Shown: piece after piece, positions 108 through 56,430 of the stretch
Layout of the letters: each line of letters starts with the position of its first letter
Position numbering within the stretch: the stretch's first letter is position 1
Assembly (NCBI GenBank): GCA_964397675.1
Contig: CAYNKI010000001.1
Span: forward strand, 1-56,841
DNA from: an uncultured Pirellulales bacterium
GTDB taxonomy: Bacteria; Planctomycetota; Phycisphaerae; Sedimentisphaerales; Anaerobacaceae
Length of the DNA stretch: 56,841 nt
Direction of reading: 5' to 3'
Translations under genes and position numbers: made by a program
Notes under the pieces: generated by a model
What the model was told of the DNA's origin: nothing
Seen by the model: only the letters and a program-made list of their open reading frames with translations
Databases searched by the model: none

Positions 108-125
108 TCCCGATGTACATCGGGA
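108..125. repeat. PAL-A TCCCGATGTACATCGGGA
   Basis: Perfect. Intergenic, 83 nt upstream of the flgB sigma54 promoter. Confidence 0.95.
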
Positions 126-38173: not shown

Positions 38174-38178
38174 CGGGA
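38161..38178. repeat. PAL-A
   Basis: Perfect, at the flgE / PilZ-gene junction. Contains the annotated ATG of the PilZ gene. Confidence 0.95.
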
Positions 38179-40354: not shown

Positions 40355-40372
40355 CCCCGATGTACATCGGGG
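40355..40372. repeat. PAL-A with C..G outer pair
   Basis: In the predicted 5' leader between the sigma54 promoter and the flgD ATG. Confidence 0.95.
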
Positions 40373-40581: not shown

Positions 40582-40599
40582 TCCCGATGTACATCGGGA
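40582..40599. repeat. PAL-A (20-bp perfect with flanks)
   Basis: Intergenic, 156 nt upstream of the flgD sigma54 promoter. Confidence 0.95.
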
Positions 40600-40705: not shown

Positions 40706-40723
40706 TCCCGAAGTACTTCGGGA
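40706..40723. repeat. PAL-B
   Basis: Perfect, intergenic. Abuts composite element 40731-40832. Confidence 0.95.
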
Positions 40724-40730: not shown

Positions 40731-40832
40731 TAAAGTAAAGTCAAAAAATCAAAGATTAAAAATCAAAATTGTGGAATCGCCGCTTTGCGGCGATGACTTC
40801 CTTAATTTTACATTTTGATATTTGATTTTTGG
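40731..40832. repeat. composite A/T-heptad hairpin element
   Basis: flgD / activator-1 divergent region. Core ATCGCCGCTTTGCGGCGAT (40776-40794). Confidence 0.9.
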
Positions 40833-40900: not shown

Positions 40901-40918
40901 TCCCGATGTACCTCGGGA
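40901..40918. repeat. PAL-A, 1 mismatch
   Basis: TCCCGATGTACCTCGGGA, 40 nt upstream of the activator-1 ATG. Confidence 0.8.
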
Positions 40919-42459: not shown

Positions 42460-42477
42460 TCCCGATGCACATCGGGA
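42460..42477. repeat. PAL-A, centre GCAC
   Basis: Intergenic, 2 nt after the activator-1 stop and 79 nt upstream of the sigma54 promoter at 42557. Confidence 0.9.
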
Positions 42478-42588: not shown

Positions 42589-45054
42589 ATGGCTAAAAAA
42601 AAACTACAAGATACGACCCCGATGTACATCGGGGCTGACGTACCAACATCAAGACGGCATAAACGTCTTTCAATAATTCAGAAAATTCTAATTGGCTGTA
42701 TTGTTCTGATTGTGGCAATGTTGCTGTATACACTACTGAGGGCTCCCGCAAGGCGGGGTCCCAAATCCTTATCGATGCCCGTTATCGGGAATCGTGTTTC
42801 GGGAATCGGGAATCGTGTTTCGGGAATCGGGAATCGTGCATCGAAACACGAATCACGAACCACAAACCACGAATCACGATTCCCGTCAACTGAGGGTCTG
42901 TCTTTAAAAACTGCTGAAACATTCTATCTTCAGAGGGATTTCGACAAAGCTTACGCCGCGTATAACCAGCTTCGCCTGGACCTGCCCGTCAATGACCAAG
43001 AGGATCAAATGAGAGATTTCCTGCAGCTCAAAATGGCTTTTTGTAGAAAAAACGCTCATAAATCTGAGCAAGCTGAACCCTTATTCAGGGTAGTTTCGAA
43101 AAGTCGCTGCCCTGTTGTAAGAGCAGTTGCCAATTACTATCTCAGCCTGCTCGAAATGCAAAAAGAAAAATACTTGAAGGCTCAAACACAAGCTTACCAG
43201 ACGATTGCTTTAATCAGTGCGCTAACCTTCGATTGGCAGTGGACTTTATCATTGCAGCGAAACTGCCAATTTCTTGTCGCTGAATCGATAACCAGACATG
43301 TCCTCTCACTTTGCGACGCCGATAAAGACATGCCCGTGGAATTATGGAGTAGTATACCAGAAATGGACCCTTTTATAAACCTAAGTGAAGCAGAACTGCG
43401 CTGCCTTTTGAACTCCGGCTCAGAACAATTGCGCGGCGCACTGCTTAGCCCGCAGATTCAACAGCTTGAGCATCAAGGCGGCCCAGTTAGCTGGTCTGTC
43501 ATCTGCAATGGAGCATCTATTGAGGAGCTATTGGCAAGATTTGCTGCCAACGCTGACCTTGATATTGAATGGGCTTGCAACAGTAACCCCGCTCCGATGT
43601 ACATCGGGGCGGAAAAAGACAATTTTCGCAAAAGGCCAGTGTGTTTGTATATGTCATCGGCAACAACGCAGCAGATTGTAACAGTAGCAACTGGTTGTGC
43701 TGGTTTACTGGCTCGAATGGATAATCCCCGCTTTCGCGGGGACAAGCTTGCCCCTGCAGAAGCAGGGGGAACAGTTAAAATCTTCAACCCGTTTAACTAT
43801 ACATCATTATCAGAACATACAGCCTTGCTGGCCCAGGAAGCTGTTTCGCTGTGGCAGATATTTCTGCTGACTTCTGGTGACGACCCCGATGTACATCGGG
43901 GCATCGCCGACGAAGGCAGCCTTGATCCAGTCCAGGGCTCCGCCCTGGCTCATTTTGCATTGGGACTTTTGCAGGCCCAAAGGAGTTGCTTAACCGAAGC
44001 GATTGCCGAGTACAAATTGGTTGCCAATCGCTACCCGCGAACATCTTTTGCACCGTACGCACTGCTGGCCTCCAGCAAGCTGAAAACCAACTTGCACGAC
44101 TATTTTGGTGCCCGTGAGGATTTGAAGCAGCTTACAGAACAATTTTCTGATACTGAACTTTCCGACAAGGCTTGCTTGTATCTTGCTAATGCTACTATGA
44201 AAGCTGGGCTTTTATCCGAAGCCGCCAAGCTATATAGCAAAGTTTACAATCTTGGTTTCTCTTTAGAATCTCAGAGGGATTCTGCAATCGGAGCGGGCAG
44301 GTGTTTCTATGAGAACAAAGACTATGAGAACGCAGCTAAATGGTTAACTCGATATATCAACCTCTCCAAAGACCACACAGATAAAGATTTGTATTTAGCT
44401 TGTTTTCTATTAGGCAAAACCTACCTTGAGCTGAATTTGCCTCAACAAGCCTGCAATGCTTTTGAATCCGCATTAGGTGGACTGGCAGGCCAACATGTCA
44501 TGCAAAAGTATGTAGAGGCCCTATCAGCTTTGGTTAAAACGCAAATCATGCAGGGCCATTTCATAGAGGCATTAAAGTTATTAGAGAATACCAGCTCATG
44601 GCAGCTATCACAGAAAGAATCTCTTGAAATATTACTACTCAAGGCAAGTGCCCTCCGCTCAATGGGCTTGTATGACGAAGTTATTGCGGCACTTCGTGAT
44701 AAGTCGGAGTACGTGCCTGACTCGCAATTAAAGGCCAAAATATTTTTTGAACAGTCCAAATGCTTCCTCGCTAAAGGCAACCTGGAACTTGCTCGTGAGA
44801 AATTAAGCGAAATTCTCGTTTTCATAGAACCTGGGCCTCTGGCGCAAGAAATTGGGTGTGTATTGGCTGATGTTTGTTTGAAGCTCGGCCAGGATTCACA
44901 AGCAATCTCCATTTGTCTACAGCTTTTGGATTCTGCCCCGGAAGATCAAATAAAGCAAAGAGCGTCAAACCTACTGGCAGCAGCTTACACTCAGCAGAAA
45001 AACTATGACCAGGCAGTTTTAGCTCTTTTGGGCCAGGGATATTTAACACAATGA
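42589..45054 (+). CDS. large TPR-repeat membrane-anchored protein
   Basis: ORF 42568..45054. TTG 42568 lies inside the promoter, so ATG 42589 is preferred. One TM (ILIGCIVLIVAMLLYTLL) and many TPR-like repeats. Hosts 3 PAL-A copies, 2 GC hairpins and a 100-nt heptad hairpin. Confidence 0.65.
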   Translation: MAKKKLQDTTPMYIGADVPTSRRHKRLSIIQKILIGCIVLIVAMLLYTLLRAPARRGPKSLSMPVIGNRVSGIGNRVSGIGNRASKHESRTTNHESRFPSTEGLSLKTAETFYLQRDFDKAYAAYNQLRLDLPVNDQEDQMRDFLQLKMAFCRKNAHKSEQAEPLFRVVSKSRCPVVRAVANYYLSLLEMQKEKYLKAQTQAYQTIALISALTFDWQWTLSLQRNCQFLVAESITRHVLSLCDADKDMPVELWSSIPEMDPFINLSEAELRCLLNSGSEQLRGALLSPQIQQLEHQGGPVSWSVICNGASIEELLARFAANADLDIEWACNSNPAPMYIGAEKDNFRKRPVCLYMSSATTQQIVTVATGCAGLLARMDNPRFRGDKLAPAEAGGTVKIFNPFNYTSLSEHTALLAQEAVSLWQIFLLTSGDDPDVHRGIADEGSLDPVQGSALAHFALGLLQAQRSCLTEAIAEYKLVANRYPRTSFAPYALLASSKLKTNLHDYFGAREDLKQLTEQFSDTELSDKACLYLANATMKAGLLSEAAKLYSKVYNLGFSLESQRDSAIGAGRCFYENKDYENAAKWLTRYINLSKDHTDKDLYLACFLLGKTYLELNLPQQACNAFESALGGLAGQHVMQKYVEALSALVKTQIMQGHFIEALKLLENTSSWQLSQKESLEILLLKASALRSMGLYDEVIAALRDKSEYVPDSQLKAKIFFEQSKCFLAKGNLELAREKLSEILVFIEPGPLAQEIGCVLADVCLKLGQDSQAISICLQLLDSAPEDQIKQRASNLLAAAYTQQKNYDQAVLALLGQGYLTQ
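42617..42634. repeat. PAL-A with C..G outer pair
   Basis: In the TPR protein gene (PMYIGA). Confidence 0.95.
42745..42757. repeat. GC hairpin CCCGCAAGGCGGG
   Basis: In the TPR gene (PARRGP). Confidence 0.75.
42786..42885. repeat. 100-nt heptad hairpin (GGGAATC / GTGTTTC units pairing with GAAACAC / GAATCAC units)
   Basis: Inside the TPR CDS, translated as IGNRVSGIGNRVSGIGNRASKHESRTTNHESRF. The terminal CGGGAATCGTG pairs with CACGATTCCCG. Confidence 0.85.
43592..43609. repeat. PAL-A, 1 mismatch
   Basis: CTCCGATGTACATCGGGG in the TPR protein gene (PMYIGA). Confidence 0.8.
43725..43742. repeat. GC hairpin family 2, opposite orientation
   Basis: TCCCCGCTTTCGCGGGGA in the TPR gene (NPRFRGD). 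Exact reverse complement of the 6691 copy. Confidence 0.85.
43884..43901. repeat. PAL-A with C..G outer pair
   Basis: In the TPR protein gene (PDVHRG). Confidence 0.95.
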
Positions 45055-45908
45055 AAGTTAAAACTAAAAACATAAAGCCGAACGCGATTCTCAATAAACG
45101 AAACTCGATCCCGATGCACATCGGGACTCGCTTATTGTTTGTGACCGGTTGTCTCTTAGCAGTCCCGATGTACATCGGGATTGCAATTGCATCAGAGCAA
45201 CCTGGCTCAACTGAAACGCCACAGCATCCCGATGTACATCGGGACTTGTGGCAAAACAGGATTAGCGTTCCTGAAAGAGGGGAGGATAAAAAATACAAAA
45301 ATGAGCTTTGGGGTTTGATTGAGCAAATCCGCTCCATTCAATTTGAACCAAAGAGCCAAGAGCCTAAGCCTGTCCCGACGTACATCGGGATTGAGCCAGC
45401 TCCAATCCGCCTTCAGCAAGAACCTAATGAAACCTCATTAATAACTAAAGCGCCACAGGAGCCCCGTAAATCGGGGCAGCCTGAGCCGGACAAGGAATTG
45501 CAATATGAGCCAGTATCCGATCAAACATTACAAATGCTGGAGAATATATCACAATCCGCCACGGAGCGGAACCAATTAGGCAATCCTCTTGAGCTGGCAG
45601 AAATTCTGTTTCGCAGCGGTCATCTGGAACAAGCAGCGGTGTTTTATGAACAAGCCCTTAATCGCAAGGATCCGAACGATGTCAAGGACCCCGCCCTGGC
45701 TCAGGATAGAGCCTGGATTTTATTTCAAATAGGCAATTGCTTAGGGCAAGTCCCGATGTACATCGGGATGCCCGCAGCAAAGAAGATGTATAGACAGCTA
45801 ATTGTAGAATATCCCAATTCTCCATGGACTGATTTAGCTAAGGCCCGGGAGAAATTAATTGACTGGTACCTGAGCGAAAAACCTCAAACATTGATTGCTA
45901 TGGAGTAA
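45051..45908 (+). CDS. protein with C-terminal TPR/YbgF-like domain; N-terminal half riddled with palindrome copies
   Basis: C-terminus AAVFYEQALNRKDPND...YRQLIVEYPNSPWTDLAKAREKL. Five PAL-A copies in 285 aa. Overlaps the upstream gene by 4 nt. Confidence 0.55.
   Translation: MKVKTKNIKPNAILNKRNSIPMHIGTRLLFVTGCLLAVPMYIGIAIASEQPGSTETPQHPDVHRDLWQNRISVPERGEDKKYKNELWGLIEQIRSIQFEPKSQEPKPVPTYIGIEPAPIRLQQEPNETSLITKAPQEPRKSGQPEPDKELQYEPVSDQTLQMLENISQSATERNQLGNPLELAEILFRSGHLEQAAVFYEQALNRKDPNDVKDPALAQDRAWILFQIGNCLGQVPMYIGMPAAKKMYRQLIVEYPNSPWTDLAKAREKLIDWYLSEKPQTLIAME
45109..45126. repeat. PAL-A, centre GCAC
   Basis: In ORF 45051 (PMHIGT). Confidence 0.9.
45163..45180. repeat. PAL-A
   Basis: Perfect, in ORF 45051 (PMYIGI). 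Confidence 0.95.
45227..45244. repeat. PAL-A
   Basis: Perfect, in ORF 45051 (PDVHRD). Confidence 0.95.
45373..45390. repeat. PAL-A, 1 mismatch
   Basis: TCCCGACGTACATCGGGA in ORF 45051 (PTYIGI). Confidence 0.8.
45462..45476. repeat. PAL-like hairpin
   Basis: CCCCGTAAATCGGGG in ORF 45051. Confidence 0.5.
45751..45768. repeat. PAL-A
   Basis: Perfect, in ORF 45051 (PMYIGM). Confidence 0.95.
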
Positions 45909-45913: not shown

Positions 45914-47542
45914 GTGAATAGAAACGAATCAGACAATCCCGATGTACATCGGGACCAAGGTTTTCCGCGAAGTAAGGTCTCAAGCAAGCAACGTGACAAT
46001 ACCTCCAATGTGCTAATAGTTGATAGTGACCCTGCCGTGGCTCGGTTTATGTTGGAGATTTTAGCTCACAAAGGAATTCGCGCAAATCTTGTCGATGATG
46101 GAAAAGCCGCTTTTGACTTTCTCGACAAGAATAACTGCGACCTTGTATTTATTAACAACAAGATTAGTCAACCACACAGCACTTTCGAGCTGCTAAGCAA
46201 AATCAGGATAGATTCACCGGAGCTGCCGGTGGTTGTGTTAGCCGAGCTCGACGCTGGATGCTCATCACGAAGTGCTTCGGGATCGTCCATCGTCCATCGT
46301 CCGACGAGTCGCCCCGATGTACATCGGGGAGTGCCGAGGGACATGCCGCGCTTGGTAGCCCAAACGGCTGTAAAGGCAATTCGTGCAGGTTGTTGTGATT
46401 TCCTAATCAAGCCTCTTGATCGTGAAAAAATTGAGTCTCTGTTGGATACCTTCCTACCCAACCATAGTGTCTCAACAATAGCCTCGGCCCAGGATGGTAG
46501 TCGCTATCTTTATCAGATTGTAGGCAAAAGCCCAAAACTAATTCAAACCATCAATTTAGCCCAAAGGATAGCTCCCACATCGACACCAGCTTTAATAAGC
46601 GGTGAAAGTGGAACAGGCAAAGAGCTCATTTCTTTCCTTATCCACCACAAAAGCAAAAGGATTCAAGGTCCATACATCAAAGTCAGTTGTGTGGCATTAA
46701 GTGACTCACTTCTGGAAAGCGAATTGTTCGGCCATGAAAAAGGCGCCTTCACCGGTGCCTACGCTCAACGTAAGGGGCGATTTGAAATGGCCCATGGTGG
46801 GACCTTGCTTTTAGACGAAATTACTGAAACACCTCTGAAGTTCCAGGCTAAGCTGCTTCGGATACTCGAACAGCAAGAGTTTGAACGGGTCGGAGGAAAT
46901 GAAAACATCAGAGTTAATGTTCGGATAATAAGCACCACCAACAAAGATTTATTGCAAGAAGTTCAACAAAACCGGTTCCGCCAGGACCTTTACTATCGGT
47001 TAAGTGGGGTAAGATTAGTCATCCCACCTCTAAGACAACGTCCTGAAGATTTGCCCGAGCTGATATGGCATTTCGTCAATCTTCATGCACGTGAATCACG
47101 ACGCACTATAACTAAACTTGACGATGCAATGATAGATATTTTTGCCAAATATCATTGGCCTGGCAATGTCCGGCAATTACGAAACGTTGTGCTGACTTCA
47201 TTGATTTTAGGAGCTGGACCAATCCTTTCATTAGCGGATGTCTCCTGGCTCTTTGATGAGCTCGCACCGCTGTCACAGACTGGATGGACACAAGGTGGCA
47301 GCCTCAAAGGTAAAGCCTTTGGGGATGGCCATCGCCAAGCTGTGCTTGACGCTGCCACCCATCAGGGGCTGGGTGGCATACCGTTAGTTCAAATAGAGCA
47401 ACAAGCAATTTTGGATACCTTGCGTCAGACAGCAGGTAACCAGACTAAAGCTGCAAAAGTATTAGGCATTAGTGATCGAACGTTAAGAGACAAAGTTCGC
47501 CGATATCGATCCGCCGAGGCAAACTTGCAACCAGTCGGATAA
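45914..47542 (+). CDS. sigma54-dependent activator with atypical receiver domain (FleR/FlrC-like position)
   Basis: GTG start with GGAG upstream. REC-like N-terminus (VLIVDSDPAV...). AAA+ motifs GESGTGKELIS, ESELFGH, GAFTGA. HTH (KAAKVLGISDRTLRDKVRRY). Three PAL copies and a heptad array lie inside the CDS. Confidence 0.85.
   Translation: MNRNESDNPDVHRDQGFPRSKVSSKQRDNTSNVLIVDSDPAVARFMLEILAHKGIRANLVDDGKAAFDFLDKNNCDLVFINNKISQPHSTFELLSKIRIDSPELPVVVLAELDAGCSSRSASGSSIVHRPTSRPDVHRGVPRDMPRLVAQTAVKAIRAGCCDFLIKPLDREKIESLLDTFLPNHSVSTIASAQDGSRYLYQIVGKSPKLIQTINLAQRIAPTSTPALISGESGTGKELISFLIHHKSKRIQGPYIKVSCVALSDSLLESELFGHEKGAFTGAYAQRKGRFEMAHGGTLLLDEITETPLKFQAKLLRILEQQEFERVGGNENIRVNVRIISTTNKDLLQEVQQNRFRQDLYYRLSGVRLVIPPLRQRPEDLPELIWHFVNLHARESRRTITKLDDAMIDIFAKYHWPGNVRQLRNVVLTSLILGAGPILSLADVSWLFDELAPLSQTGWTQGGSLKGKAFGDGHRQAVLDAATHQGLGGIPLVQIEQQAILDTLRQTAGNQTKAAKVLGISDRTLRDKVRRYRSAEANLQPVG
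45937..45954. repeat. PAL-A
   Basis: Perfect, in the activator-2 N-terminus (PDVHRD). Confidence 0.95.
46265..46282. repeat. PAL-B, degenerate
   Basis: TCACGAAGTGCTTCGGGA in the activator-2 receiver domain (RSASG). Confidence 0.7.
46281..46308. repeat. tandem heptads (CATCGTC)
   Basis: Between two PAL copies in the activator-2 receiver domain. Reverse complement of the 52494 array units. Confidence 0.75.
46312..46329. repeat. PAL-A with C..G outer pair
   Basis: In the activator-2 receiver domain (PDVHRG). Confidence 0.95.
47295..47360. repeat. family 3 inverted repeat
   Basis: GGTGGCAGCCTCAA (47295-47308) pairs with TTGACGCTGCCACC (47346-47359), inside activator 2. Confidence 0.6.
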
Positions 47543-47561: not shown

Positions 47562-47579
47562 TCCCGAAGTGCTTCGGGA
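47562..47579. repeat. PAL-B, centre GTGC
   Basis: Intergenic between activator 2 and fliL. Confidence 0.9.
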
Positions 47580-47601: not shown

Positions 47602-48252
47602 ATGGCAGACAAAAAAAATGCAGAAAAACTCGTTCCTGCGAAGGCCGAGGCCGTAGCGGGGCAAAAAAAACTGGAGCAGCAAAAGTTCGATGAGGCCTCC
47701 GAAAAGGTTGATCCCCAGAAGGCCACGGCAGGCAGCCGCAGGCAGTGGATAATAATTGCTGTTGTTGTGGTTGTCTGCGCCGGTACCGGCTTTGGACTCG
47801 GTCGTTTATTTGGCTGGTCCGGTAGTAGCAAAATAGCTGAACCTTCCCAATCTCAACAAACAGAATCAAATCACACACAGCTATTCGAAAAAGATAGTGA
47901 TGCCACGGATTCAGCATCCCAAAGTACTTCGGGATGGTTCTACGACTTTGACCCTGTGGTGGCAAATCTTAATGAGCCGAGCGTAACGCGCTACATTCGA
48001 GTGGCACTGACACTGCAAATAAGTACTGAATTGGACCAAAAAAAGCTCTCCGCTTTTATTGAGGAAAAGAAGCCGCTCTTGAAAAATTGGCTTACCATTT
48101 ACCTTGCAAATCAGACCCTTGAAGATATTCGAGGTGACAGGAATCTTCTGCGTATTCAATCAGAAATATTGGATGCTTTTAATGAAAGACTTTTCCCTGA
48201 TGCCAAACCTAAAATTAAGAACGTTCTTTTTAGTGAATTCGCTGTACAATGA
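47602..48252 (+). CDS. fliL: flagellar basal body-associated protein FliL
   Basis: Single TM and a FliL-type C-terminal domain (FDPVVANLNE...YIRVALTLQ...LRIQSEILDAFNERL). Precedes fliM. Confidence 0.8.
   Translation: MADKKNAEKLVPAKAEAVAGQKKLEQQKFDEASEKVDPQKATAGSRRQWIIIAVVVVVCAGTGFGLGRLFGWSGSSKIAEPSQSQQTESNHTQLFEKDSDATDSASQSTSGWFYDFDPVVANLNEPSVTRYIRVALTLQISTELDQKKLSAFIEEKKPLLKNWLTIYLANQTLEDIRGDRNLLRIQSEILDAFNERLFPDAKPKIKNVLFSEFAVQ
47917..47934. repeat. PAL-B, 1 mismatch
   Basis: TCCCAAAGTACTTCGGGA in fliL (QSTSG). Confidence 0.8.
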
Positions 48253-49355
48253 GTAATGGCGTTGCTAACAATTTAAGTAGAGAAAATATTCGAAAGCTTC
48301 TCGCTGCTATAGGCTCTGGGCCAGCAGAAGATACACAAATAGAAGTCTCTGAGTATGATTGGCATCAGCCTCATTATTTTAGTAGCAGCCAGCTCAACAG
48401 ACTTGATAATTTCACAGAGAAAATAGCCGCAGCAATAGCTGAAACATTTTCTCAGCTTTATCACAATGATTTTAATGTCACTATTACTTCGAACACCCAG
48501 CACTTTGCCAGTGAGCTTTTCGAACAAGTATTAAACAGTGGACAAAACGATTATTACCTGGCATTTGGCACCGATCAGGAACATCTATGTGGACTCATTG
48601 ACGTACCCCAGCAAACGGCAGTTACCTGGACAAAGCAATTGCTCGGTGATGACGAATCTGAAAAAGATACAGGGGACACCACATCACAGCCCGACCCCGA
48701 TGTACATCGGGGCTCATCCCGAAGTGCTTCGGGATTATCGCAACTGGAAGAATCCCTTTTGTTCGACATTGTCTCAGCAATCGTGTCCCAATGTACCCCG
48801 ATGTCCATCGGGGATTTGCAGCCGGTCTCTGAACTTGTCAAAGGCCAGTTGCCCATCAAGCTGTCCACCACTCCCGATTTTAAATCGGGACTACAACCCG
48901 TACAAGAAATCAGTAAGATTGTTTTTAGCATCGAAAAAGCCTCCTCTGCCGACGACAAGCCCGCAGCAGCCTGTGAAGCTTACCTTTTAATACCTTGCAG
49001 CAGACTGGCACCTGCCGTGGGAAAAATCATAGAAGCTGATAAAAATCCCAATGTACATCGGGATGATGATATCTCAAAAGCGATACTTGAGCATCTACAG
49101 CAAATGCCGGTTTCTGTTACGGCTCAATTGGCGGTTGCTGTGCTTACTTTTGAACAGATAATTAGCCTTAGCCCTTATGATATATTGTTACTTGATAAAG
49201 CGATCAATGAACCGATTGAATTGGTTGTTGAAGGCCGAACAGTTCTTCGTGGTCAGCCCACAAAATCGGCTGGCCAGCACGCTATTGTGTTCACAGAGGT
49301 CCCAATGTACAGCGGGACAAAAGCTAAATCACAGGCATTAAATGACTTGACATGA
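48249..49355 (+). CDS. fliM: flagellar motor switch protein FliM
   Basis: N-terminus LSRENIRKLL and a C-terminal SpoA-type domain (VTAQLAVAVLTFEQIISLSPYDILLLDK...ELVVEGRTVLRGQP). Five PAL copies plus one stem-variant hairpin in the middle domain. Confidence 0.8.
   Translation: MSNGVANNLSRENIRKLLAAIGSGPAEDTQIEVSEYDWHQPHYFSSSQLNRLDNFTEKIAAAIAETFSQLYHNDFNVTITSNTQHFASELFEQVLNSGQNDYYLAFGTDQEHLCGLIDVPQQTAVTWTKQLLGDDESEKDTGDTTSQPDPDVHRGSSRSASGLSQLEESLLFDIVSAIVSQCTPMSIGDLQPVSELVKGQLPIKLSTTPDFKSGLQPVQEISKIVFSIEKASSADDKPAAACEAYLLIPCSRLAPAVGKIIEADKNPNVHRDDDISKAILEHLQQMPVSVTAQLAVAVLTFEQIISLSPYDILLLDKAINEPIELVVEGRTVLRGQPTKSAGQHAIVFTEVPMYSGTKAKSQALNDLT
48695..48712. repeat. PAL-A with C..G outer pair
   Basis: In fliM (PDVHRG). 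A PAL-B copy follows 4 nt downstream. Confidence 0.95.
48717..48734. repeat. PAL-B, centre GTGC
   Basis: In fliM (RSASG). Confidence 0.9.
48796..48813. repeat. PAL-A, centre GTCC
   Basis: CCCCGATGTCCATCGGGG in fliM (PMSIGD). Confidence 0.8.
48872..48890. repeat. PAL stem with a different loop
   Basis: TCCCGATTTTAAATCGGGA in fliM (PDFKSG). Confidence 0.7.
49046..49063. repeat. PAL-A, 1 mismatch
   Basis: TCCCAATGTACATCGGGA in fliM (PNVHRD). Confidence 0.8.
49300..49317. repeat. PAL-A, 2 mismatches
   Basis: TCCCAATGTACAGCGGGA in fliM (PMYSGT). Confidence 0.65.
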
Positions 49356-49370: not shown

Positions 49371-49826
49371 ATGGCAAAAGCAGCTAAAGCAACAGAAGAA
49401 AAAGCTCATCCCGATGTACATCGGGATCAACCATCACAGGATGATACCTCACAAGCTGACTCTAAAAAGCAGGTACAGGCGGTTGATTTTCCAGAGGCCC
49501 CGATGCCCATCGGGGAATCTTCAGGTTCGGGCGGCAAATTAGACATCATACTGGATATGAACGTGCCTGTTACCATTGCCATTGGACAAACGGAGATACC
49601 AGTCCGGAGACTTTTGCAACTTGGCCCCGGCTCAGTATTGAAGCTCGGTAAACCTATTGATGAACCAGCTGATTTGTACTTGAAGGACGCTAAGTTTGCT
49701 ACAGGGGACGTAGTAGTAGTAGACGGCCGGTTCGCCGTCAGAATAAAACAGGTTATTGGCGGGACCCCGGATAGCGAGAATCCCGCAGGTAGCGCTTCCG
49801 ATCCCGATGTACATCGGGATAGCTGA
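49371..49826 (+). CDS. fliN: flagellar motor switch protein FliN
   Basis: SpoA domain ILDMNVPVTIAIGQTEIPVRRLLQLGPGSVLKLGKPIDEPADLYLKDAKFATGDVVVVDGRFAVRIKQVI. Three PAL copies in the N- and C-terminal tails. Confidence 0.9.
   Translation: MAKAAKATEEKAHPDVHRDQPSQDDTSQADSKKQVQAVDFPEAPMPIGESSGSGGKLDIILDMNVPVTIAIGQTEIPVRRLLQLGPGSVLKLGKPIDEPADLYLKDAKFATGDVVVVDGRFAVRIKQVIGGTPDSENPAGSASDPDVHRDS
49409..49426. repeat. PAL-A
   Basis: Perfect, in the fliN N-terminal tail (PDVHRD). Confidence 0.95.
49498..49515. repeat. PAL-A, centre GCCC
   Basis: CCCCGATGCCCATCGGGG in fliN (PMPIGE). Confidence 0.8.
49802..49819. repeat. PAL-A
   Basis: Perfect. Encodes the last residues of fliN (PDVHRD-S-stop). Confidence 0.95.
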
Positions 49827-49846: not shown

Positions 49847-49864
49847 CCCCGATGTACATCGGGG
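49847..49864. repeat. PAL-A with C..G outer pair, followed by a partial duplication GTACATCGG
   Basis: Lies between fliN and flhA. Confidence 0.9.
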
Positions 49865-49897: not shown

Positions 49898-52108
49898 ATG
49901 GCAGGCTCTGTAAGGCCGAATTTAGTCCCAATGTCCAACGGGACCGATAATTTGCAAAAGCTAACAACTCCCCGCCTTCGCGGGGACAATCCCAATGATT
50001 CTATCGGGATTAATACACCTCTGGCCTCCCACAGCAATATTATTTTGGTTTTGGGCCTGGTGACAGTTCTTGCCACTCTCATAATTCCCCTGCCTACGCT
50101 ATTGATGGATATGCTTTTAGCCTGTAGTATCTCATTGGCGGTAGCCGTATTAATCATTACATTGTCATCAAAAGAGGCCCTCGATTTATCCACCTTCCCT
50201 TCGTTGCTTCTTTTCGTGACATTATTTCGCCTCTCTCTTAACGTGGCCTCGACCAGATTGATCCTTCTACAGGCCGATGCGGGGAAAATTATCCAGACTT
50301 TCGGTAGTTTCGTTGCCGGCGGCAGCCTTGTCGTCGGACTTGTAATTTTCTTAATTCTTGTTGTTATTCAGTTCATAGTAATCACAAAAGGTGCCGAGCG
50401 AATAAGCGAGGTATCTGCTCGCTTTACTCTCGATGCTATGCCCGGCAAGCAGATGGCCATCGATGCAGACCTAAACGCCGGCACTATTACCGAGGCCCAG
50501 GCTAACACACGCAGATCCAAAATTGTCAAAGAAAGCGAATTCTATGGTGCCATGGATGGTGCCAGCAAGTTCATTCGTGGAGATGCCAAAGCCGGGCTGA
50601 TAATTACCGCGGTCAATATAATTGGCGGCATGGCTATGGGCTATTCTCGAGGTATGACTGTTGCCAACGCTGTAAAAACTTATTCTATTCTATCCATCGG
50701 TGATGGCTTAGTCAGCCAGATACCATCGATAATCATCTCTGTCAGCTCAGGCTTTTTGGTGACCAAAATCTCATCGAGCCGGAGCGTCGGCCAGGACCTC
50801 TCCAAGCAGTTTCTTAAAACCAGTCAACCGTTGATGACAGCCGCTTTCGTCATTGGCTTGATGGCATTGGTGCCTGGTTTACCTAAGGTGCCTTTTATAC
50901 TTTTAGCCATCGGGACCGCTTTGATCGGACGAATGACTGCTCAATCCGAGAAGGACCGCAAGAAATCAATTACGCCTGTACCCCAAAAAGCTGAAAAAGA
51001 ACCAGTTGAACAACTCCTGGACGTCGATAGAGTTTCAGTGCGTGTCGGCGTGCGACTGATTAGCATGGTGGACCCTCGTAAAAATAATACCATCTTTGAG
51101 CGTATTGGGGCACTGCGCAGGGGTTTTGCGCACCAGCTTGGAATCATTATCCCATTAGTGCGTTTGCGGGACGATATCAATCTCGAGCCAAGCGTTTATG
51201 AGATTAGGCTCTCAGAGATACCAATAGCGAAGGGGCGGTTAGAACCCGATATGTATCTGGCGATGGATCCAGGCACCGTCCAAAACAAAGTAGCCGGTAT
51301 TGAAACTGCCGAACCTGTTTATGGATTACCCGCCCTCTGGATCACAAAAGATAACAAAGAAAAAGCAGAGTTAAATGGATATACCGTAATCGATCCTGAA
51401 TCCGTCTTTATTACACACCTGTCCGAAACTCTAAAAAAACACGTTGATGAATTGCTAACCCGTGAGGATGTGCAGCTTCTTGTAGATAGACTTCGCAAGG
51501 AACAACCTTCATTAGTTGGAGAAGTTGTTGGTGCTGATGGCCAAGTGCCTATTGGATTGCTTCAACGTGTGCTGAAAAACCTCTTAAAGGACGGAATCCC
51601 GATCCGTGAATTAACCATTATACTTGAATCGTTGTCGGAAAACGCTCCAAAAACTAAAAACATCGCTGCATTAACAGAGTTAGTTCGAAAATCCTTAAGC
51701 AGAACGATTACCGAGCAGTATAAAGACGAGACCGGTAAAATTTCGGCTATAACACTGGAGCCCTCATTCGAACATCATATAACTTCTATTTTGCGGCAGG
51801 AAGCAGACCACATTACCCTGGCCTTACCAACCGAGACGGCGATGCAGATAAGTAGAAAAATCGCACAAGCCTGGAAAGCAACGATGGACAACGGCAAAGA
51901 CAAAGTGGTTATGCTATGCGATTCGAGATTGCGCTCGCCCTTAGCGACCATGTTATCACGTACAGTGCCATTGCTGCCGGTTATAGCTTATGACGAAATC
52001 GTGCTTGGGACCGAAGTAGAACCCATAGAAACTATAACCGTTCAGCTCACTGAATCCACGGTGGCCAAAGAACAAGAGTTGGTCGGAGTTTTACCAGAAG
52101 TGAGCTAA
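49898..52108 (+). CDS. flhA: flagellar export apparatus protein FlhA
   Basis: ORF 49874..52108, with ATG 49898 preferred (GAAGGA 7 nt upstream). FHIPEP motifs (ERISEVSARFTLDAMPGKQMAIDADL). Large cytoplasmic C-terminal domain. Confidence 0.95.
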   Translation: MAGSVRPNLVPMSNGTDNLQKLTTPRLRGDNPNDSIGINTPLASHSNIILVLGLVTVLATLIIPLPTLLMDMLLACSISLAVAVLIITLSSKEALDLSTFPSLLLFVTLFRLSLNVASTRLILLQADAGKIIQTFGSFVAGGSLVVGLVIFLILVVIQFIVITKGAERISEVSARFTLDAMPGKQMAIDADLNAGTITEAQANTRRSKIVKESEFYGAMDGASKFIRGDAKAGLIITAVNIIGGMAMGYSRGMTVANAVKTYSILSIGDGLVSQIPSIIISVSSGFLVTKISSSRSVGQDLSKQFLKTSQPLMTAAFVIGLMALVPGLPKVPFILLAIGTALIGRMTAQSEKDRKKSITPVPQKAEKEPVEQLLDVDRVSVRVGVRLISMVDPRKNNTIFERIGALRRGFAHQLGIIIPLVRLRDDINLEPSVYEIRLSEIPIAKGRLEPDMYLAMDPGTVQNKVAGIETAEPVYGLPALWITKDNKEKAELNGYTVIDPESVFITHLSETLKKHVDELLTREDVQLLVDRLRKEQPSLVGEVVGADGQVPIGLLQRVLKNLLKDGIPIRELTIILESLSENAPKTKNIAALTELVRKSLSRTITEQYKDETGKISAITLEPSFEHHITSILRQEADHITLALPTETAMQISRKIAQAWKATMDNGKDKVVMLCDSRLRSPLATMLSRTVPLLPVIAYDEIVLGTEVEPIETITVQLTESTVAKEQELVGVLPEVS
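49926..49943. repeat. PAL-A, degenerate
   Basis: TCCCAATGTCCAACGGGA in the flhA N-terminus (PMSNGT). Confidence 0.55.
49968..49985. repeat. GC hairpin family 2
   Basis: TCCCCGCCTTCGCGGGGA in the flhA N-terminus (PRLRGD). Confidence 0.8.
49989..50008. repeat. PAL stem, degenerate, longer loop
   Basis: TCCCAATGATTCTATCGGGA in the flhA N-terminus (NPNDSIGI). Confidence 0.5.
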
Positions 52109-52401: not shown

Positions 52402-53299
52402 AAATACTCCTGTGAGCTCCCGTTCCACGAGGGCTGAGCGGCATACCACAGGACCAGAGTGGCAGCCTCAATCCCGATGTACTTCGGGATTGAGGATGGA
52501 CGATGGACGACAGACGACAGACGACGGATGTTGCAGCACAGAGCACCTAAAGGTCGTGGCGCTGCGCACATACGCAGGCCCAAAAAAATCCGCCACCGGC
52601 GGGCTTGACGATGAACAGATAGCCCAGTTTCTGCCATTGGTTCACAAAATAGCTCGCCGGGTGACGACATATCTTAAACCTCCTTTGCTATTTGAGGATT
52701 TGATCTCAGCAGGCACGATTGGATTGGTTAAAGCTGCACATGATTTCGATTCATCTCACCAGGCCAAATTTAAGACTTACGCTTATATTCGGATAAAAGG
52801 AGCCATTCTTGACGAGTTGAGAAGTTCATCTTTACTGCCTGCAAATCTTAATAAGCAGCTTCGAAACGCTCGTCGGCTTTGTCAAGAAATCACTGAGCGG
52901 ACAGGCATAGCGCCCAGTGATGAAGAGTTGGCTGAGAAACTTGGAATAACAGTTAATGAAGTTTATGCCCTGTTTGAGGTGGCACGCGCCCAGTATTTTG
53001 TCTCTATTGACGAGTTTACTGGGGAACAATCCTCCCTGGACCATTTCTTGGCAGCAACCAACACAGCCACTCCCGATAAACAGCTTGAACAAGCTGAGCT
53101 GGTAGATAAATTAACTGAGGCCATACGGCAGTTAGACCAGAGGCGACGGCAGATTATTTTGCTTTATTACCAACAAGGCCTAACGATGAAGCAGATAGCC
53201 GGCCTTTTGAAGGTTACCGAATCACGTATCAGCCAGCTGCACGTAAGTGCTATATTCAATTTATCTGTAAAATTGAGGAAATGGAAAGATGGCAGATAG
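52385..53299 (+). CDS. fliA: flagellar sigma factor FliA (sigma28)
   Basis: Region 2 (DLISAGTIGLVKAAHDFD...FKTYAYIRIKGAILDELR) and region 4.2 (LYYQQGLTMKQIAGLLKVTESRISQLH). The start is uncertain because the first ~55 codons are made of nested repeats. GTG 52385 and ATG ~52496 are both possible. Confidence 0.85.
   Translation: MTVRTENTPVSSRSTRAERHTTGPEWQPQSRCTSGLRMDDGRQTTDDGCCSTEHLKVVALRTYAGPKKSATGGLDDEQIAQFLPLVHKIARRVTTYLKPPLLFEDLISAGTIGLVKAAHDFDSSHQAKFKTYAYIRIKGAILDELRSSSLLPANLNKQLRNARRLCQEITERTGIAPSDEELAEKLGITVNEVYALFEVARAQYFVSIDEFTGEQSSLDHFLAATNTATPDKQLEQAELVDKLTEAIRQLDQRRRQIILLYYQQGLTMKQIAGLLKVTESRISQLHVSAIFNLSVKLRKWKDGR
52472..52489. repeat. PAL A/B hybrid nested in a longer stem (52466-52495)
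   Basis: CCTCAATCCCGATGTACTTCGGGATTGAGG in the fliA 5' region (RCTSG). Confidence 0.85.
52494..52530. repeat. tandem heptads (GGACGAT / GACGACA)
   Basis: In the fliA 5' region, immediately after the nested PAL. Confidence 0.75.
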
Positions 53300-53537: not shown

Positions 53538-53792
53538 ATGGATGAAGCGGTAGGACACATTCTAAAAAGTGAGGAGGTCAAGCTCGAAGGCCGAGTTCAA
53601 CTCGATGAGGTCCAGTCGCAGACCGCCAAAGGCGGACCAAAAGAGAGGAAAGAGGTCTCGGCCATAAAGCAGGTGAGCATCTTAGAAAACCACCCTGAAT
53701 TCGCCGTTATAGAGGTAACCTGCTGTTGTGGTGAGAGAATATATTTAAGGTGTGATTATGCTGGTCAAGAAAGTCAAAAAATTAAAGATTAA
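53538..53792 (+). CDS. small Cys-containing protein, unknown
   Basis: 84 aa with motif FAVIEVTCCCGERIYLRCDY. The last codons and the stop lie in the left arm of a composite repeat. Confidence 0.35.
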   Translation: MDEAVGHILKSEEVKLEGRVQLDEVQSQTAKGGPKERKEVSAIKQVSILENHPEFAVIEVTCCCGERIYLRCDYAGQESQKIKD

Positions 53793-53800
53793 AAATCAAA

Positions 53801-53818
53801 TCCCGATGTACATCGGGA
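53801..53818. repeat. PAL-A
   Basis: Perfect. Occupies the core of composite element 53770-53880. Confidence 0.95.
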
Positions 53819-53835
53819 CCCGAAGTGCTTCGGGA
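53818..53835. repeat. PAL-B, centre GTGC
   Basis: ACCCGAAGTGCTTCGGGA, abutting the PAL-A copy in the same composite core. Confidence 0.85.
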
Positions 53836-53902
53836 TGACTTCCTTAATTTTACATTTTGATATTTGATATTTAATTTTGGGAAAGATGATTGGAGAAAAA
53901 CA

Positions 53903-54516: not shown

Positions 54517-54598
54517 AATGCAAAAATCAAAAATTAAAAATCAAAATTGTGGTCTCGATGTACATCAGGATTGCATTTTGCATTTTGACTTTTGATCT
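54517..54598. repeat. composite A/T-heptad hairpin element with degenerate PAL-A as core
   Basis: CAAAAATCAAAAATTAAAAATCAAAATTGTGG - TCTCGATGTACATCAGGA - TTGCATTTTGCATTTTGACTTTTGAT. Confidence 0.8.
54553..54570. repeat. PAL-A, degenerate
   Basis: TCTCGATGTACATCAGGA in the core of composite element 54517-54598. Its ATG is the candidate lipoprotein start. Confidence 0.6.
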
Positions 54599-55196
54599 GT
54601 TTATTCTTATGTCAGGCTGCCGATTCTACACAGACTCTAAGCCGATGACCGATTGTTATTACCTTAATCCTGACAAACAATTGTCTACTATTGGCAGGGT
54701 TACTCTTATTGAGCTGGACAACTATTCCAGTTATCCGCAAATTTCCGCTGATGTAACCGAAGCACTTTTTCTGGCATTACAAAAAAAACATCTTTTTGGC
54801 TTAACTCATATCGAGCAGAATGACCCTGCGTGGCACAGTTTACAATTAGACTTAGAGACAACTTACAACCTTGAACAACTATTATCAATCCATAAGACAT
54901 TAAAATGCGATGCTGTATTGATTGGCACTGTAACCAAATATCAGCCCTATCCTCATATGGCCATCGGCCTACGCATGAGGCTTTTAGACCTGAAAGAAGG
55001 GCAATTACTATGGGCTTTGGAACAAGTTTGGGATAGCGCCGATAAAAATACCGAATCCCGGATAAAAGACTACTTCCAACATCATATGCGATCCGGCACT
55101 GCATCTTTGCGCGAACAGATAGTAGTTGTCAGCTCGCTTAAGTTTCTCAAATTTGTAGCTTATGAGGTTGCAGAAACATTACAACCCACAAGATAA
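54558..55196 (+). CDS. lipoprotein (TolB-N/LpoB/FlgO-like fold is only a guess)
   Basis: Distal part of ORF 54321..55196. MYIRIAFCILTFDLFILMSGC is a plausible lipoprotein signal peptide. The ATG lies in a degenerate PAL and the h-region lies in the repeat arm. ATG 54498 is an alternative start. Confidence 0.5.
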   Translation: MYIRIAFCILTFDLFILMSGCRFYTDSKPMTDCYYLNPDKQLSTIGRVTLIELDNYSSYPQISADVTEALFLALQKKHLFGLTHIEQNDPAWHSLQLDLETTYNLEQLLSIHKTLKCDAVLIGTVTKYQPYPHMAIGLRMRLLDLKEGQLLWALEQVWDSADKNTESRIKDYFQHHMRSGTASLREQIVVVSSLKFLKFVAYEVAETLQPTR

Positions 55197-55226: not shown

Positions 55227-55242
55227 TCCCGATAAATCGGGA
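55227..55242. repeat. PAL stem with a different loop
   Basis: TCCCGATAAATCGGGA, intergenic upstream of the flgM-like gene. Confidence 0.7.
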
Positions 55243-55336: not shown

Positions 55337-55612
55337 ATGATTGATAAAATATATATTAACCACTCCCAATGTACATCGGGATTGCAAAAATCGCCGTCCA
55401 AGCAGCCTGATTCTACCAAGATTCCCCCAAATAATAGCGCGGATGTGTCCTTGCAGGTCGATTATATCCGTTTAATTAACCAAGCAATACAAGTTCCTCA
55501 AACTGATACAGAAGCCGTCCAACGAGCGCAAGAATTGCTACGGTCCGGTAAGCTGGAAAGTCCGGAATATACTCGAAAAGCCGCAAAGAACATCATAACA
55601 TCCGGTATATAA
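55337..55612 (+). CDS. flgM: anti-sigma28 factor FlgM-like (tentative)
   Basis: 91 aa. The C-terminus AVQRAQELLRSGKLESPEYTRKAAKNII resembles the FlgM C-terminal helix pattern. AAGGAA RBS. A degenerate PAL-A reads QCTSG. Confidence 0.45.
   Translation: MIDKIYINHSQCTSGLQKSPSKQPDSTKIPPNNSADVSLQVDYIRLINQAIQVPQTDTEAVQRAQELLRSGKLESPEYTRKAAKNIITSGI
55364..55381. repeat. PAL-A, 1 mismatch
   Basis: TCCCAATGTACATCGGGA in the flgM-like gene (QCTSG). Confidence 0.8.
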
Positions 55613-56181: not shown

Positions 56182-56430
56182 TCAAACGTAACAATCAAGA
56201 ATCTGTCCCATCATTCGATTATCAAGAGCCGCTTTTGAGATGTCTAATGAACGCGTATAGGTGGCCGAATTGCTGATAGGCTTGACATCCCGAAGTACTT
56301 CGGGATTCACAACGACAGCACAATCTCTGCGGTAGCATTTATTTTTGGGCTGACCTAAATACATTGACGGATTGGTGGCTTTTGTAAAAGGAAAAGAATT
56401 GATAACTTTACATGAGATCCGCTTCGTCAT
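56182..56430 (-). CDS. hypothetical protein (weak call)
   Basis: 82-aa ORF with no motif. Contains PAL-B read as PEVLRD. Confidence 0.2.
   Translation of the reverse strand: MTKRISCKVINSFPFTKATNPSMYLGQPKNKCYRRDCAVVVNPEVLRDVKPISNSATYTRSLDISKAALDNRMMGQILDCYV
56288..56305. repeat. PAL-B
   Basis: Perfect, in the weak ORF 56182..56430 (PEVLRD). Confidence 0.95.

Follow-up and report, generated by a model that had tools for sequence, protein, structure and literature searches.

The window examined here, a stretch of 56,841 nucleotides (nt) from the start of contig CAYNKI010000001.1 (GCA_964397675.1), belongs to a planctomycete of the Phycisphaerae/Sedimentisphaerales and is interspersed, at about one copy per kb, with a perfect 18-base palindrome, TCCCGA-W-GTAC-W-TCGGGA. 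The palindrome comes in two symmetric types, A (TCCCGA-T-GTAC-A-TCGGGA) and B (TCCCGA-A-GTAC-T-TCGGGA), which differ by a mirrored T-A/A-T swap, and the question that this locus raises is what keeps the two arms complementary. The original prediction, made from the letters of the window, was that a 7-bp stem with a 4-nt loop is selected in RNA or single-stranded DNA (ssDNA). Our preferred answer, to which we assign a probability of about one half, is that the palindrome is a lineage-amplified hairpin mini-repeat of DNA, comparable to the repetitive extragenic palindromes (REP), which spreads by copy-and-paste and does not consist of individually selected RNA structures.

Taking as a copy every match in the window with at most four mismatches to type A or type B, we counted 59, among them 22 exact, 18 with one mismatch and 14 with two (as a single-stranded oligonucleotide the sequence is TCCCGAWGTACWTCGGGA). 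The spaced arms TCCCGA-N6-TCGGGA occur 35 times in the window against an expectation of 0.00 (100 dinucleotide shuffles). The mirrored swap that defines the two types was confirmed (at pair 7/12, 38 copies have T-A, 15 have A-T and the other 6 are non-complementary), as was the joint switching of the outer pair (T-A in 45, C-G in 12, other combinations in 2), and pairs 2-6 are Watson-Crick in 54-58 of the 59 copies. Both-sided changes and the covariation score are higher than in any of 500 column shuffles. These changes are confined to three pairs, namely the outer pair, pair 7 and a weak purine-pyrimidine (R...Y) flank pair, and because each core pair occurs in just two pair types, the covariation reflects a handful of events. 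The flank shows a purine at -1 in 50 of 58 copies and a pyrimidine at +1 in 50 of 58, to which the flank logos add only a weak C at -3; beyond the core the copies share no sequence similarity. The central tetranucleotide had been described as a freely varying loop. This holds for its two middle bases, with 16 changes (13.6% per site), about six times the 2.4% per site of stem positions 2-6 and 13-17, and fails for G8 and C11, which are invariant in all 59 copies; the GTGC and GCAC centres are one variant read on opposite strands.

Hybrids between A and B are few, as had been claimed (A/A at 2361 and 34638, T/T at 52472), and three further copies are non-complementary at pair 7 (C/A at 32119 and 45373, T/C at 40901). 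The caveat attached to that claim, that two founder sequences could mimic covariation, proved well placed: at 5.1% per site, copies non-complementary at pair 7 are no less frequent than other changes in the stem (2.4% per site), which means that the small number of hybrids reflects young founder lineages and that there is no sign of purifying selection on single copies. Two to four founder sublineages can account for the pattern, namely A, B, the outer C..G variant and the GTGC variant, none of which speaks for a selected RNA structure at each copy. Neither the A/B type (adjacency permutation, p=0.42) nor the outer pair (p=0.54) is clustered among neighbouring copies, and the idea of a regional clustering of subtypes was dropped after this permutation. 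Selection at the RNA level is argued against because the one-sided changes on the sense strand produce A.C mismatches (TCCCAA in 5 copies) and not G.U, and because copies occur in either transcription direction. What stands of the predicted stem is that the arms are kept complementary, which fits an intrastrand hairpin; the original prediction was right in kind and probably wrong as to the level, which would be propagation or correction of DNA rather than an RNA element selected copy by copy.

The window is a chromosomal flagellar gene cluster, encoding FliF, FliG, FliI, FlgE, FlgK, FliD, flagellin, FliL, FliM/N, FlhA and the FliA sigma factor together with two sigma-54 activators and a 2085-residue glycosyl/methyltransferase, and the palindrome lies mostly in its coding sequence. 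Forty-six of the 59 copies (~78%) are inside open reading frames (ORFs), in all three frames, and 12 are intergenic; for 39.9-56.8 kb we used the recorded gene calls of L173, a contig of the same strain with 99.98% identity (contigs and loci are cited by L numbers throughout), and these agree with the intragenic location. Type A codes (I/V)PMYIG(T), PDVHR(D/G) or SRCTSG and type B codes PKYFG, PEVLR or SRSTSG, and, as read directly from the sequence, none of the palindrome's frames contains a stop codon. The copies are located in protein linkers and in N- and C-termini: about one of the 24 copies with Pfam coordinates falls inside a domain envelope, where domains make up ~51% of those residues by our own count. 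The lack of stops in every frame, together with net length changes that are multiples of three, makes it possible for copies to persist inside genes.

The palindromes are not an assembly artefact, because the window matches two independent assemblies of the strain (JGI 3300028837 and SRR3085416) at 99.98% identity. Between the three assemblies of the strain there are no indels and only four substitutions, at window positions 40771, 40784, 47984 and 52529. An origin from sequencing adapters was likewise rejected, as frames are preserved, copies are present in Illumina-type and long-read assemblies and the three strain assemblies agree; the 10-nt likeness of ATGTACTTCG to what we take to be a nanopore adapter was set aside with it. 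A phage origin of the window was also rejected, since a megablast of 40-56.8 kb against a phage collection gave no match and the region is the chromosomal flagellar cluster.

Single copies are not conserved, because the syntenic loci of the closest relatives, the best named of which have an FlhA ~85% identical, lack the palindrome (zero copies in six such loci). These loci carry YCCGCC-(2-4 nt)-GGCGGR hairpins at 0.4-1 per kb, also in genes (where they code SATGG, PATGG, SALGG and similar peptides), and these hairpins show the same T..A/C..G outer dimorphism as the palindrome; the window has only four of them. When the hairpin-coded residues are marked on alignments, which are uncertain in variable linkers, the palindromes and the hairpins of the relatives are often found in the same variable slots. 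One slot, in FliL, is exactly orthologous: it holds TCCCAAAGTACTTCGGGA in the window (47917..47934, type B with G5>A), TCCGCCTCTGGCGGA in L108 and the quasi-palindrome TCCAACTCTGACGGA in L107, a TCC...GGA hairpin having been replaced and its loop TCT kept in L108. Slots in FliM and at the N-terminus of FliA are also shared between the window and its relatives, and one hairpin of L108 was apparently formed in place by 3 substitutions.

That short hairpin units are actively gained in this clade follows from two loci of Phycisphaerae, L107:3190-13713 and L111:638-10968, which differ by hairpin insertions. They are 96.7% identical over 10.5 kb and have about 20 indels, of which more than half are visibly hairpin or inverted-repeat units (18, 21, 24, 27, 54 and 69 nt) or heptamer blocks; the lengths of the intragenic ones are multiples of three. 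Among them are two independent 21-nt insertions of TCACCCGCCCRAGGCGGGCAA and two 24-nt insertions of AGGGTTCCCGCNNNGCGGGGTYCC, in flagellar genes, which are clean and have conserved non-palindromic flanks, as well as one 18-nt insertion and composite blocks of 27-69 nt. Furthermore, a small hairpin CAGCTTCTTGCTG has been replaced by TCCGCCTTAGGCGGA. L107 also has inverted heptamer arrays.

In the window itself, one hairpin stands in the place of another in a dispersed intergenic element of ~95 nt, which has seven copies upstream of flagellar genes and might serve the flagellar regulon as a common promoter or leader. It consists of a run of A-rich heptamers of the AAAAATC type, a variable hairpin and a conserved GACTTCCTTAATTTTACATTTTG-TATTTGATTTTT. 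The slot always holds some hairpin, which varies by copy (GTTGCCGC...GCGGCAAC or ATCGCCGC-TTT-GCGGCGAT), and in two of the seven copies it is the palindrome. At 53770..53880 (+) the slot contains type B, and type A has taken the place of the ATTGTGG before it; these are the two copies that had been seen back to back at 53801-53835, an exact type A, TCCCGATGTACATCGGGA (53801..53818), and a type B whose centre is GTGC and whose outer pair is A..A, ACCCGAAGTGCTTCGGGA (53818..53835), sharing one base. At 54517..54603 (+) the slot contains a degenerate type A, TCTCGATGTACATCAGGA (54553..54570), at the 5' end of a called ORF. Elsewhere, always on the + strand, it is occupied by ATCGCCGC-TTT-GCGGCGAT (40733..40831, the 'unconverted' state), by a degenerate GTTGCCG hairpin (11146..11248), by GTTGCCGC-TGTG-CGGCAAC (11523..11624) and by GTTGCCG-CTACA-CGGCAAC (29009..29100); a partial copy lies at 8018-8059. 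Of the four substitutions between the strain's assemblies, two affect the hairpin region of the 40733 copy: position 40771 lies in the ATTGTGG before the hairpin and 40784 in the hairpin loop. As to folding, 53793-53843 favours one composite hairpin as RNA (-21.9 kcal/mol), with the left arm of A paired to the right arm of B, and two separate hairpins as DNA (-12.2 kcal/mol).

The palindrome is also found in distant genomes, for which the figures from a scan of GTDB genomes hold among the matches listed. The exact 18-mer TCCCGATGTACATCGGGA occurs in more than 106 stretches of GTDB genomes and in 11 viral contigs, its hosts including Planctomycetota, Prolixibacteraceae and other Bacteroidota, Patescibacteria, Nitrospirota and others, with 33-69% GC. 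The distinct contexts outside the genome of the window comprise 96 of type A, 8 of type B and 14 hybrids, where chance would give 1:1:2; by this internal control, only type A is truly enriched elsewhere among these matches. There the palindrome is low-copy and often lies within larger local repeats of ~40-800 nt, mostly 80-300 nt. No other contig reached the density of the window in a metagenome scan with a two-copy pattern, made on a collection without the window's contig; its 48 matches were mostly half-site and were taken as chance. A query with the palindrome-encoded peptides for further proteins of the host genome gave three candidates, none of them scored. Type B (TCCCGAAGTACTTCGGGA) recurs with similar flanks in the Nitrospirota metagenome-assembled genome (MAG) JAADGU01 (L019, L068 and L105), which is the only place outside the window, among the matches listed, where it looks repeated rather than due to chance.

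In at least 10 loci of other phyla the 18-mer replaces tRNA arms in truncated tRNA copies that stand beside intact tRNA genes. The replaced part is the anticodon arm (in four cases with the junctions GAGCG-palindrome-AGGTC), the D-loop or the T-arm, and some of these pseudo-tRNA copies form tandem arrays of 52, 66 or 106 nt; the loci, from Patescibacteria, Bacteroidota and others, include L067:3590-3790, L070:5420-5640, L020:3745-4040, L095:5150-5490, L030:5380-5660, L127:2330-2870, L132:13480-14264 and L094:960-1274. In L030 the arms flank a kept core, TAGCT having become TCCCGA-TAGCTA-TCGGGA. Nine of 124 copies lie at most 300 nt from a tRNA gene, a distance that covers 1.7% of the bases (P=2.4e-4). 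The cross-phylum identity of the 18-mer, together with the replacement of tRNA arms and hairpins, may point to a structure-directed insertion. Three other ideas about these genomes did not hold. That the palindrome is a tRNA variable arm (L020, L067 and L070) was rejected, as ARAGORN and Rfam call the neighbours and the sequences themselves are truncated tRNA copies with a replaced arm; that it is usually the tip of a longer hairpin applies to a minority only (9 of 124 with at least three extra pairs versus ~1.9 expected); and a common neighbouring gene was not found, since clustering of the ORFs within 4 kb of copies at 117 loci revealed no recurrent family and a Y1 transposase only once (L031). 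A single terminator-like instance is in Flavobacterium stagni (L036).

The Y1 transposase gene of L031, a Phycisphaerales MAG, encodes a protein of 148 residues (Y1_Tnp; Pfam E=1.4e-29) and stands between two identical copies of TCCCGAAGTACATCGGGA. The protein has the Y---Q--HH motif of TnpA-Y1 subclass 1.2, an assignment read by eye and by motif only, and JGI gives the name RayT to some of its homologs. One paralog, with an enzyme 78% identical (L175), carries TCCCGATATACATCGGGA and another, 71% identical (L176), carries TCCCGATGTGCATCGGGA, in both cases 63-65 nt past the stop codon. All the aligned Y1 genes (L031:4850-6150, L175:2670-3870, L176:2670-4070, L181:120-1220 and L179:3020-4130) share a subterminal hairpin, TTCCGGGGG-loop-CCCCCGGCTAAC, and the palindrome, where present, sits in its apical loop. 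This connects the palindrome with loci of the IS200/RAYT type, where it may be part of the sequence recognised by the Y1 enzyme or another occupant of the hairpin tip. The TTCCGGGGG-CCCCCGGCTAAC loop has different inserts in each copy, this clade of genes is also bracketed by CCGCC...GGCGG hairpins, and in L175 the centre of the palindrome holds a nested palindrome, CCTGCCTGCCGGCAGGCAGG.

According to our reading, the element, with a core of 18 bp or ~20-24 bp when the weak R...Y flank is included, would multiply by copy-and-paste on DNA, new copies being inserted into or overwriting short stretches, often the tip of an existing hairpin or quasi-palindrome, and intragenic copies would survive only in linkers and termini, where the protein can accommodate 3-9 added or altered residues. 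Its arms would be kept complementary by recognition or propagation of the ssDNA hairpin, most plausibly through an enzyme of the IS200/RAYT type (HUH-Y1) acting in trans; alternatively or additionally, intrastrand template switching would copy one arm from the other, so that a mutation in one arm, once copied to the opposite arm, would give a 'compensatory' pair in one step. In E. coli, template switching at quasi-palindromes yields mirrored double changes in a single step. Propagation or recognition of an ssDNA hairpin plus correction of this type explains the mirrored changes as well as a selected stem or better. The enzyme, the single-stranded intermediate and the selfish character of the element, which would have no function for the host, are what we infer here; what was observed is the copy number, the intragenic location, the absence from relatives, the mobility of analogous hairpins in these relatives, the replacement of hairpins and the neighbouring Y1 transposase of another genome.

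Several observations weigh against this reading. NCBIfam files the L031 enzyme under IS200/IS605 and not under RayT, the three positive Y1 loci (L031, L175 and L176) all come from one metagenome assembly, and the palindrome is absent at a 69% paralog and at homologs of 60-61% (including L181 and L179); judging from the alignment, it may be an invader of the conserved hairpin and not the cognate site of the enzyme. The window contains no transposase of any kind, and tblastn with the L031 protein gave no match in its 56.8 kb. The hallmarks of REP are absent, as there is no GTAG/CGTC tag, the copies are mostly intragenic and the palindrome is perfect. Most of the comparable window copies are deletion-insertions (delins) with ~10-15 nt replaced and a net gain of 3 to 9 codons, and a model of clean 18-nt insertions was rejected at these sites. 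Finally, no presence/absence polymorphism of the palindrome itself was seen in the one strain with three assemblies. It is possible, and we propose it only tentatively, that all these sequences belong to an undescribed class of 'hairpin-tip' mini-elements of 18-27 nt that would home to the apices of ssDNA hairpins or quasi-palindromes and overwrite them (tRNA arms, subterminal hairpins of REP/IS200, older hairpin elements and regulatory hairpins), colonise genes in frame at ~1 per kb, with a continual rewriting of linker peptides, and cross phyla; successive hairpin families would then replace one another in the same slots, in a concerted turnover of dispersed hairpins.

A serious rival, even if we regard it as rather unlikely, requires no enzyme at all. 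Replication errors would suffice: where a hairpin stalls replication, the nascent strand would switch by microhomology to another hairpin copy, return and overwrite a patch (a templated delins), intrastrand switching would perfect quasi-palindromes, slippage would make heptamer arrays, and the commonest hairpin would be the commonest donor, giving one family per lineage. The variable net length of the delins in the window is as expected from such errors, and so are the sequences that they replace, often hairpins or quasi-palindromes (CAGC-TTCTT-GCTG, the TCC...GGA of FliL, the 95-nt slot), the partial arm duplications that adjoin copies (TCGGGACTCGGGAC, CCGA-TCCCGA and GGGG-TACATCGG), the abundant heptamer arrays, one of them made from the arm (ATCGGGA), and the inverted ones of L107; the window without a transposase and the mirrored double changes, which quasi-palindrome switching makes in one step, speak for it too. 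However, the identical 18-mer in many phyla of 33-73% GC, with only type A enriched, implies a transferable sequence-specific agent, the 21- and 24-nt insertions of L107 are clean between conserved non-palindromic flanks, the palindrome adjoins Y1 transposase genes in three loci, and neighbouring copies are not alike in subtype, contrary to what donor proximity would produce.

The two remaining explanations are less likely. If a dimeric protein, for instance a methyltransferase, a nucleoid protein or a factor of repair or recombination, bound the palindrome as double-stranded DNA, and selection or biased repair maintained the site throughout the genome, as has been suggested for HIP1, this would agree with a distribution of ~1 per kb over genes, in all frames, and intergenic DNA, with the invariant G8 and C11 and strongly conserved arms and with the L108 hairpin seemingly formed in place; moreover, the 6-6-6 layout TCCCGA-TGTACA-TCGGGA resembles the core sites of recombinases. 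We consider it improbable all the same, as a repeated origin of an 18-mer by point mutation is impossible and most copies come with length changes; hybrids should be acceptable to a protein that binds with either T or A at position 7, but the two symmetric types predominate; the site is missing from close relatives, which have a different hairpin sequence instead; and the window has both a 12.3-kb stretch with no copy and arms-only copies with other centres. More improbable still is the functional RNA hairpin, or ssDNA hairpin during transcription, selected copy by copy for processing, pausing, stability or termination. The predicted hairpin is stable, at -9.7 kcal/mol for RNA (z about -3) and -6.5 kcal/mol for DNA, the mirrored changes and the variable centre are what such a stem would give, several intergenic copies lie just past stop codons (42460, 47562 and 49847), and the 95-nt slot, never without a hairpin, suggests that there the hairpin may matter. 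Against this, most copies form part of translated sequence, whatever the frame or the direction of transcription; they are not conserved in relatives, their hybrids are not depleted, G8 and C11 do not vary, and the sense strand shows A.C in place of G.U tolerance. Rfam gave no match at the gathering score across the whole window, the pattern of an intrinsic terminator was not seen (most copies are intragenic and have no T-run, as judged from copy positions and flanks, with no terminator scan run), and the same sequence replaces the arms of dead tRNA copies in other phyla.

Our preferred reading, a REP-like repeat of DNA, rests on a likeness to REP/REPIN-RAYT of E. coli and Pseudomonas, which are likewise short, high-copy hairpin formers, specific to a lineage and replaced from one relative to the next; a Y1 enzyme, encoded by one or a few genes per genome that the repeats flank, is believed to act on them as ssDNA hairpins (PMC3733652, PMC3116915, PMC6006769), and in the Phycisphaerales assembly hairpins of the palindrome family flank Y1 genes as well. 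REPs inside genes are rare but not without precedent, having been described in Opitutus, Thauera and Rickettsia (PMC3733652). The differences are that REP are imperfect, 20-40 bp long and mostly extragenic, whereas the palindrome is perfect, 18 bp long and located in genes in ~78% of its copies, has no GTAG/CGTC foot and no inverted doublets, often replaces hairpins, keeps an identical core across phyla and, at the transposase loci, sits in the loop of another hairpin. It is a short multi-copy hairpin repeat (59 copies in 56.8 kb) without the extragenic location and the tetranucleotide foot of REP. The Rickettsia palindromic elements (RPE) measure ~100-150 bp, occur only in Rickettsia and add a folded peptide segment, whereas the unit described here has 18-21 nt (6-7 codons), or up to 24 bp with its flank; both are palindromic repeats found in frame in coding genes at permissive protein sites (PMC3733652). 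HIP1 of cyanobacteria (GCGATCGC; PMC5861425, PMC4390886) is similar in having about one or more copies per gene, in coding DNA of all frames, and a debated function. Nevertheless, HIP1 is 8 bp long, occurs throughout its phylum, originates by substitution and has a link to methyltransferases, unlike the 18-bp, strain- or lineage-specific palindrome, which usually comes with length changes (net +3-9 codons) and is absent in relatives; no methyltransferase for the palindrome site was seen in the window.

The subterminal hairpins of IS200/IS605, their transposase-less derivatives (PATEs) and the TnpA-Y1 'subclass 1.2' and 'class 3' (Quentin et al. 2018, PMC6006769) likewise involve hairpins that are recognised on ssDNA, without target duplication. 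Around class 3 Y1 genes in Planctomycetes, atypical structures with a CnGA foot have been described, at up to ~600 copies per genome (PMC6006769), and the palindrome contains CCGA; its dispersed copies are far smaller than PATEs, and no cleavage or guide sequences were identified. One could regard the arms as 7-bp inverted repeats flanking a 4-nt core, as in a miniature inverted-repeat transposable element, but the size is far below the 50-500 bp of these elements and no consistent flank duplication was found at the copies. Outside bacteria, the GC-rich palindromic clusters of fungal mitochondria (Neurospora PstI palindromes, CCCTGCAGTACTGCAGGG, and yeast GC clusters) are ~18 bp, have a GTAC centre, flank tRNA genes and spread within their genome, occasionally into reading frames; they belong to an organelle and have a different sequence. 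A literature search by the palindrome sequence returned only unrelated synthetic oligonucleotides, and one on intragenic palindromes returned work on REP and RPE and nothing on a TCCCGA...TCGGGA element. Compared with REP and RPE, the unusual features are the very high intragenic density, the replacement of hairpins and the identical core across phyla. If our reading is correct, REP-like hairpins would, beyond spacers, be present in most genes of a flagellar regulon, adding or rewriting linker peptides of 6-7 residues, and hairpin families would swap between relatives at 85% FlhA identity. This would represent a steady source of variation in protein linkers and, with insertion polymorphisms that are frequent and precise (18, 21 and 24 nt), a tractable system for the movement of REP-type elements, which is experimentally unproven. 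It would also advise caution, as 'compensatory' changes in dispersed repeats cannot be read as RNA selection without controls for founders and template switching.

As for the individual copies, an exact type A in intergenic DNA (108..125) is followed by type B copies at 432..449 (GTGC centre; ORF 220-630 (+), coding PEVLRD) and, in ORF 1070-1405 (+), at 1104..1121 (exact, coding PKYFG) and 1150..1167 (one mismatch, TCGAGA), and the FliF ORF 1425-2987 (+) contains the A/A hybrid 2361..2378, with a GTGC centre. Two exact type A copies are found in ORF 4006-4563 (+), 4074..4091, after which the arm is duplicated as CTCGGGACTC, and 4384..4401, coding SRCTSG. Type B occurs at 6617..6634 (outer C..A; ORF 6439-7218 (+)) and, exact in both cases, at 9284..9301 and 9469..9486 (ORF 8791-9606 (+)), and type A at codon 8 of ORF 10321-11151 (+) (10343..10360, GTGC centre, with a GAATCGA heptamer array 35 nt before it), at 11776..11793 (exact; ORF 11634-12404 (+)) and at 12658..12675 (outer C..G; ORF 12456-13553 (+)).

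The following 12.3 kb (12676-24960) contain no copy. They encode FliD and the 2085-residue protein, in which there are three glycosyltransferase domains and two methyltransferase domains. Their GC content is lower (0.41-0.44), and they may have been acquired after the spread of the palindrome or be less tolerant of insertions. Directly after this stretch there is an exact type B (24961..24978; glycosyltransferase ORF 24499-26085 (-)), and then type A at 27358..27375 (one mismatch; ORF 26090-27622 (-)) and, exact and with 3 extra flank pairs, at 27765..27782, in the intergenic region downstream of a flagellin-like ORF. ORF 31137-31754 (-) contains a type B (31215..31232) and a type A with a GTGC centre (31352..31369), both with an outer C..G, and ORF 31751-32197 (-) the type A with C/A at pair 7 (32119..32136). 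An exact type A (34520..34537) and the A/A hybrid 34638..34655, with a GGAC centre and a CCGA duplication before it, share ORF 34060-35172 (-). In ORF 36803-38173 (-) type A is found at 37276..37293 (GTGC centre) and, exact, across the start of the ORF at 38161..38178.

Four intergenic copies come next, three of type A at 40355..40372 (outer C..G), 40582..40599 (exact) and 40901..40918 (T/C at pair 7) and an exact type B at 40706..40723, directly before the 95-nt element copy at 40733. The sigma-54 activator ORF 40958-42457 (+) has type A copies in a linker at residues 403 (42164..42181, exact) and 421 (42220..42237, one mismatch), and another with a GCAC centre lies 3 nt past its stop codon (42460..42477). 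The TPR ORF 42568-45054 (+) contains type A with an outer C..G at its N-terminus (42617..42634) and at 43884..43901, and CTCCGATGTACATCGGGG, with 3 mismatches, at 43592..43609. Five type A copies are packed into ORF 45051-45908 (+), of which 45163..45180, 45227..45244 and 45751..45768 are exact, 45109..45126 has a GCAC centre and 45373..45390 has C/A at pair 7. In the NtrC-like ORF 45914-47542 (+) an exact type A lies at residue 8 (45937..45954), and the linker between receiver and AAA+ domains holds a type B (GTGC) with one mismatch, followed by ATCGTCC x3 (46265..46282), and a type A with an outer C..G (46312..46329); a type B (GTGC) is intergenic 20 nt past the stop of this gene (47562..47579).

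The FliM-like ORF 48249-49355 (+) contains a type A with an outer C..G (48695..48712) and, 4 nt past it, a type B with GTGC (48717..48734), then CCCCGATGTCCATCGGGG (48796..48813) in a slot shared with the CCCGCCACAGGCGGG hairpin of L107/L111, a type A with G5>A (49046..49063) in place of ~10 nt of the relatives (net +9 nt) and, in its C-terminal part, the degenerate TCCCAATGTACAGCGGGA (49300..49317). In the FliN-like ORF 49371-49826 (+) there are an exact type A (49409..49426), CCCCGATGCCCATCGGGG (49498..49515) and, in the final codons, an exact type A preceded by a CCGA duplication (49802..49819); the next copy, intergenic, is a type A with an outer C..G followed by the partial duplication TACATCGG (49847..49864). 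A degenerate copy, TCCCAATGTCCAACGGGA, is at the N-terminus of FlhA (49926..49943), and the T/T hybrid 52472..52489, with 5 extra flank pairs and followed by a GGACGAC heptamer array, at that of FliA. The last copies are a type A with G5>A (55364..55381; ORF 55337-55612 (+)) and an exact type B (56288..56305) between + strand genes, within a called 82-residue ORF on the - strand. The stems with other loops that had been reported in the window are indeed present, as TCCCGA-TTTTAAA-TCGGGA (48872..48890), TCCCGA-TAAA-TCGGGA (55227..55242, intergenic) and the degenerate TCCCAA-TGATTCTA-TCGGGA (49990..50009), to which we can add arms with a 14-nt centre, TCCCGA-N14-TCGGGA (42134..42159).

Tandem repeats of heptamers are frequent in and between the genes of the window (1435-1476, 8548-8578, 10270-10308, 42784-42879, 46282-46302, 52498-52528 and others). 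Each array has its own unit (ATGAACT, CGCAAAT, GAATCGA, ATCGGGA, CGAACCA, ATCGTCC or GGACGAC), and several adjoin palindrome copies; that at 42784..42880 consists of the arm-based unit ATCGGGA x7.6 and then CGAACCA x5.4 (42842-42879). In the relatives the units are different (CAGAATA, CAGAAGA and CTAATTT), and in L012, L032 and L047 the palindrome itself lies inside such arrays.

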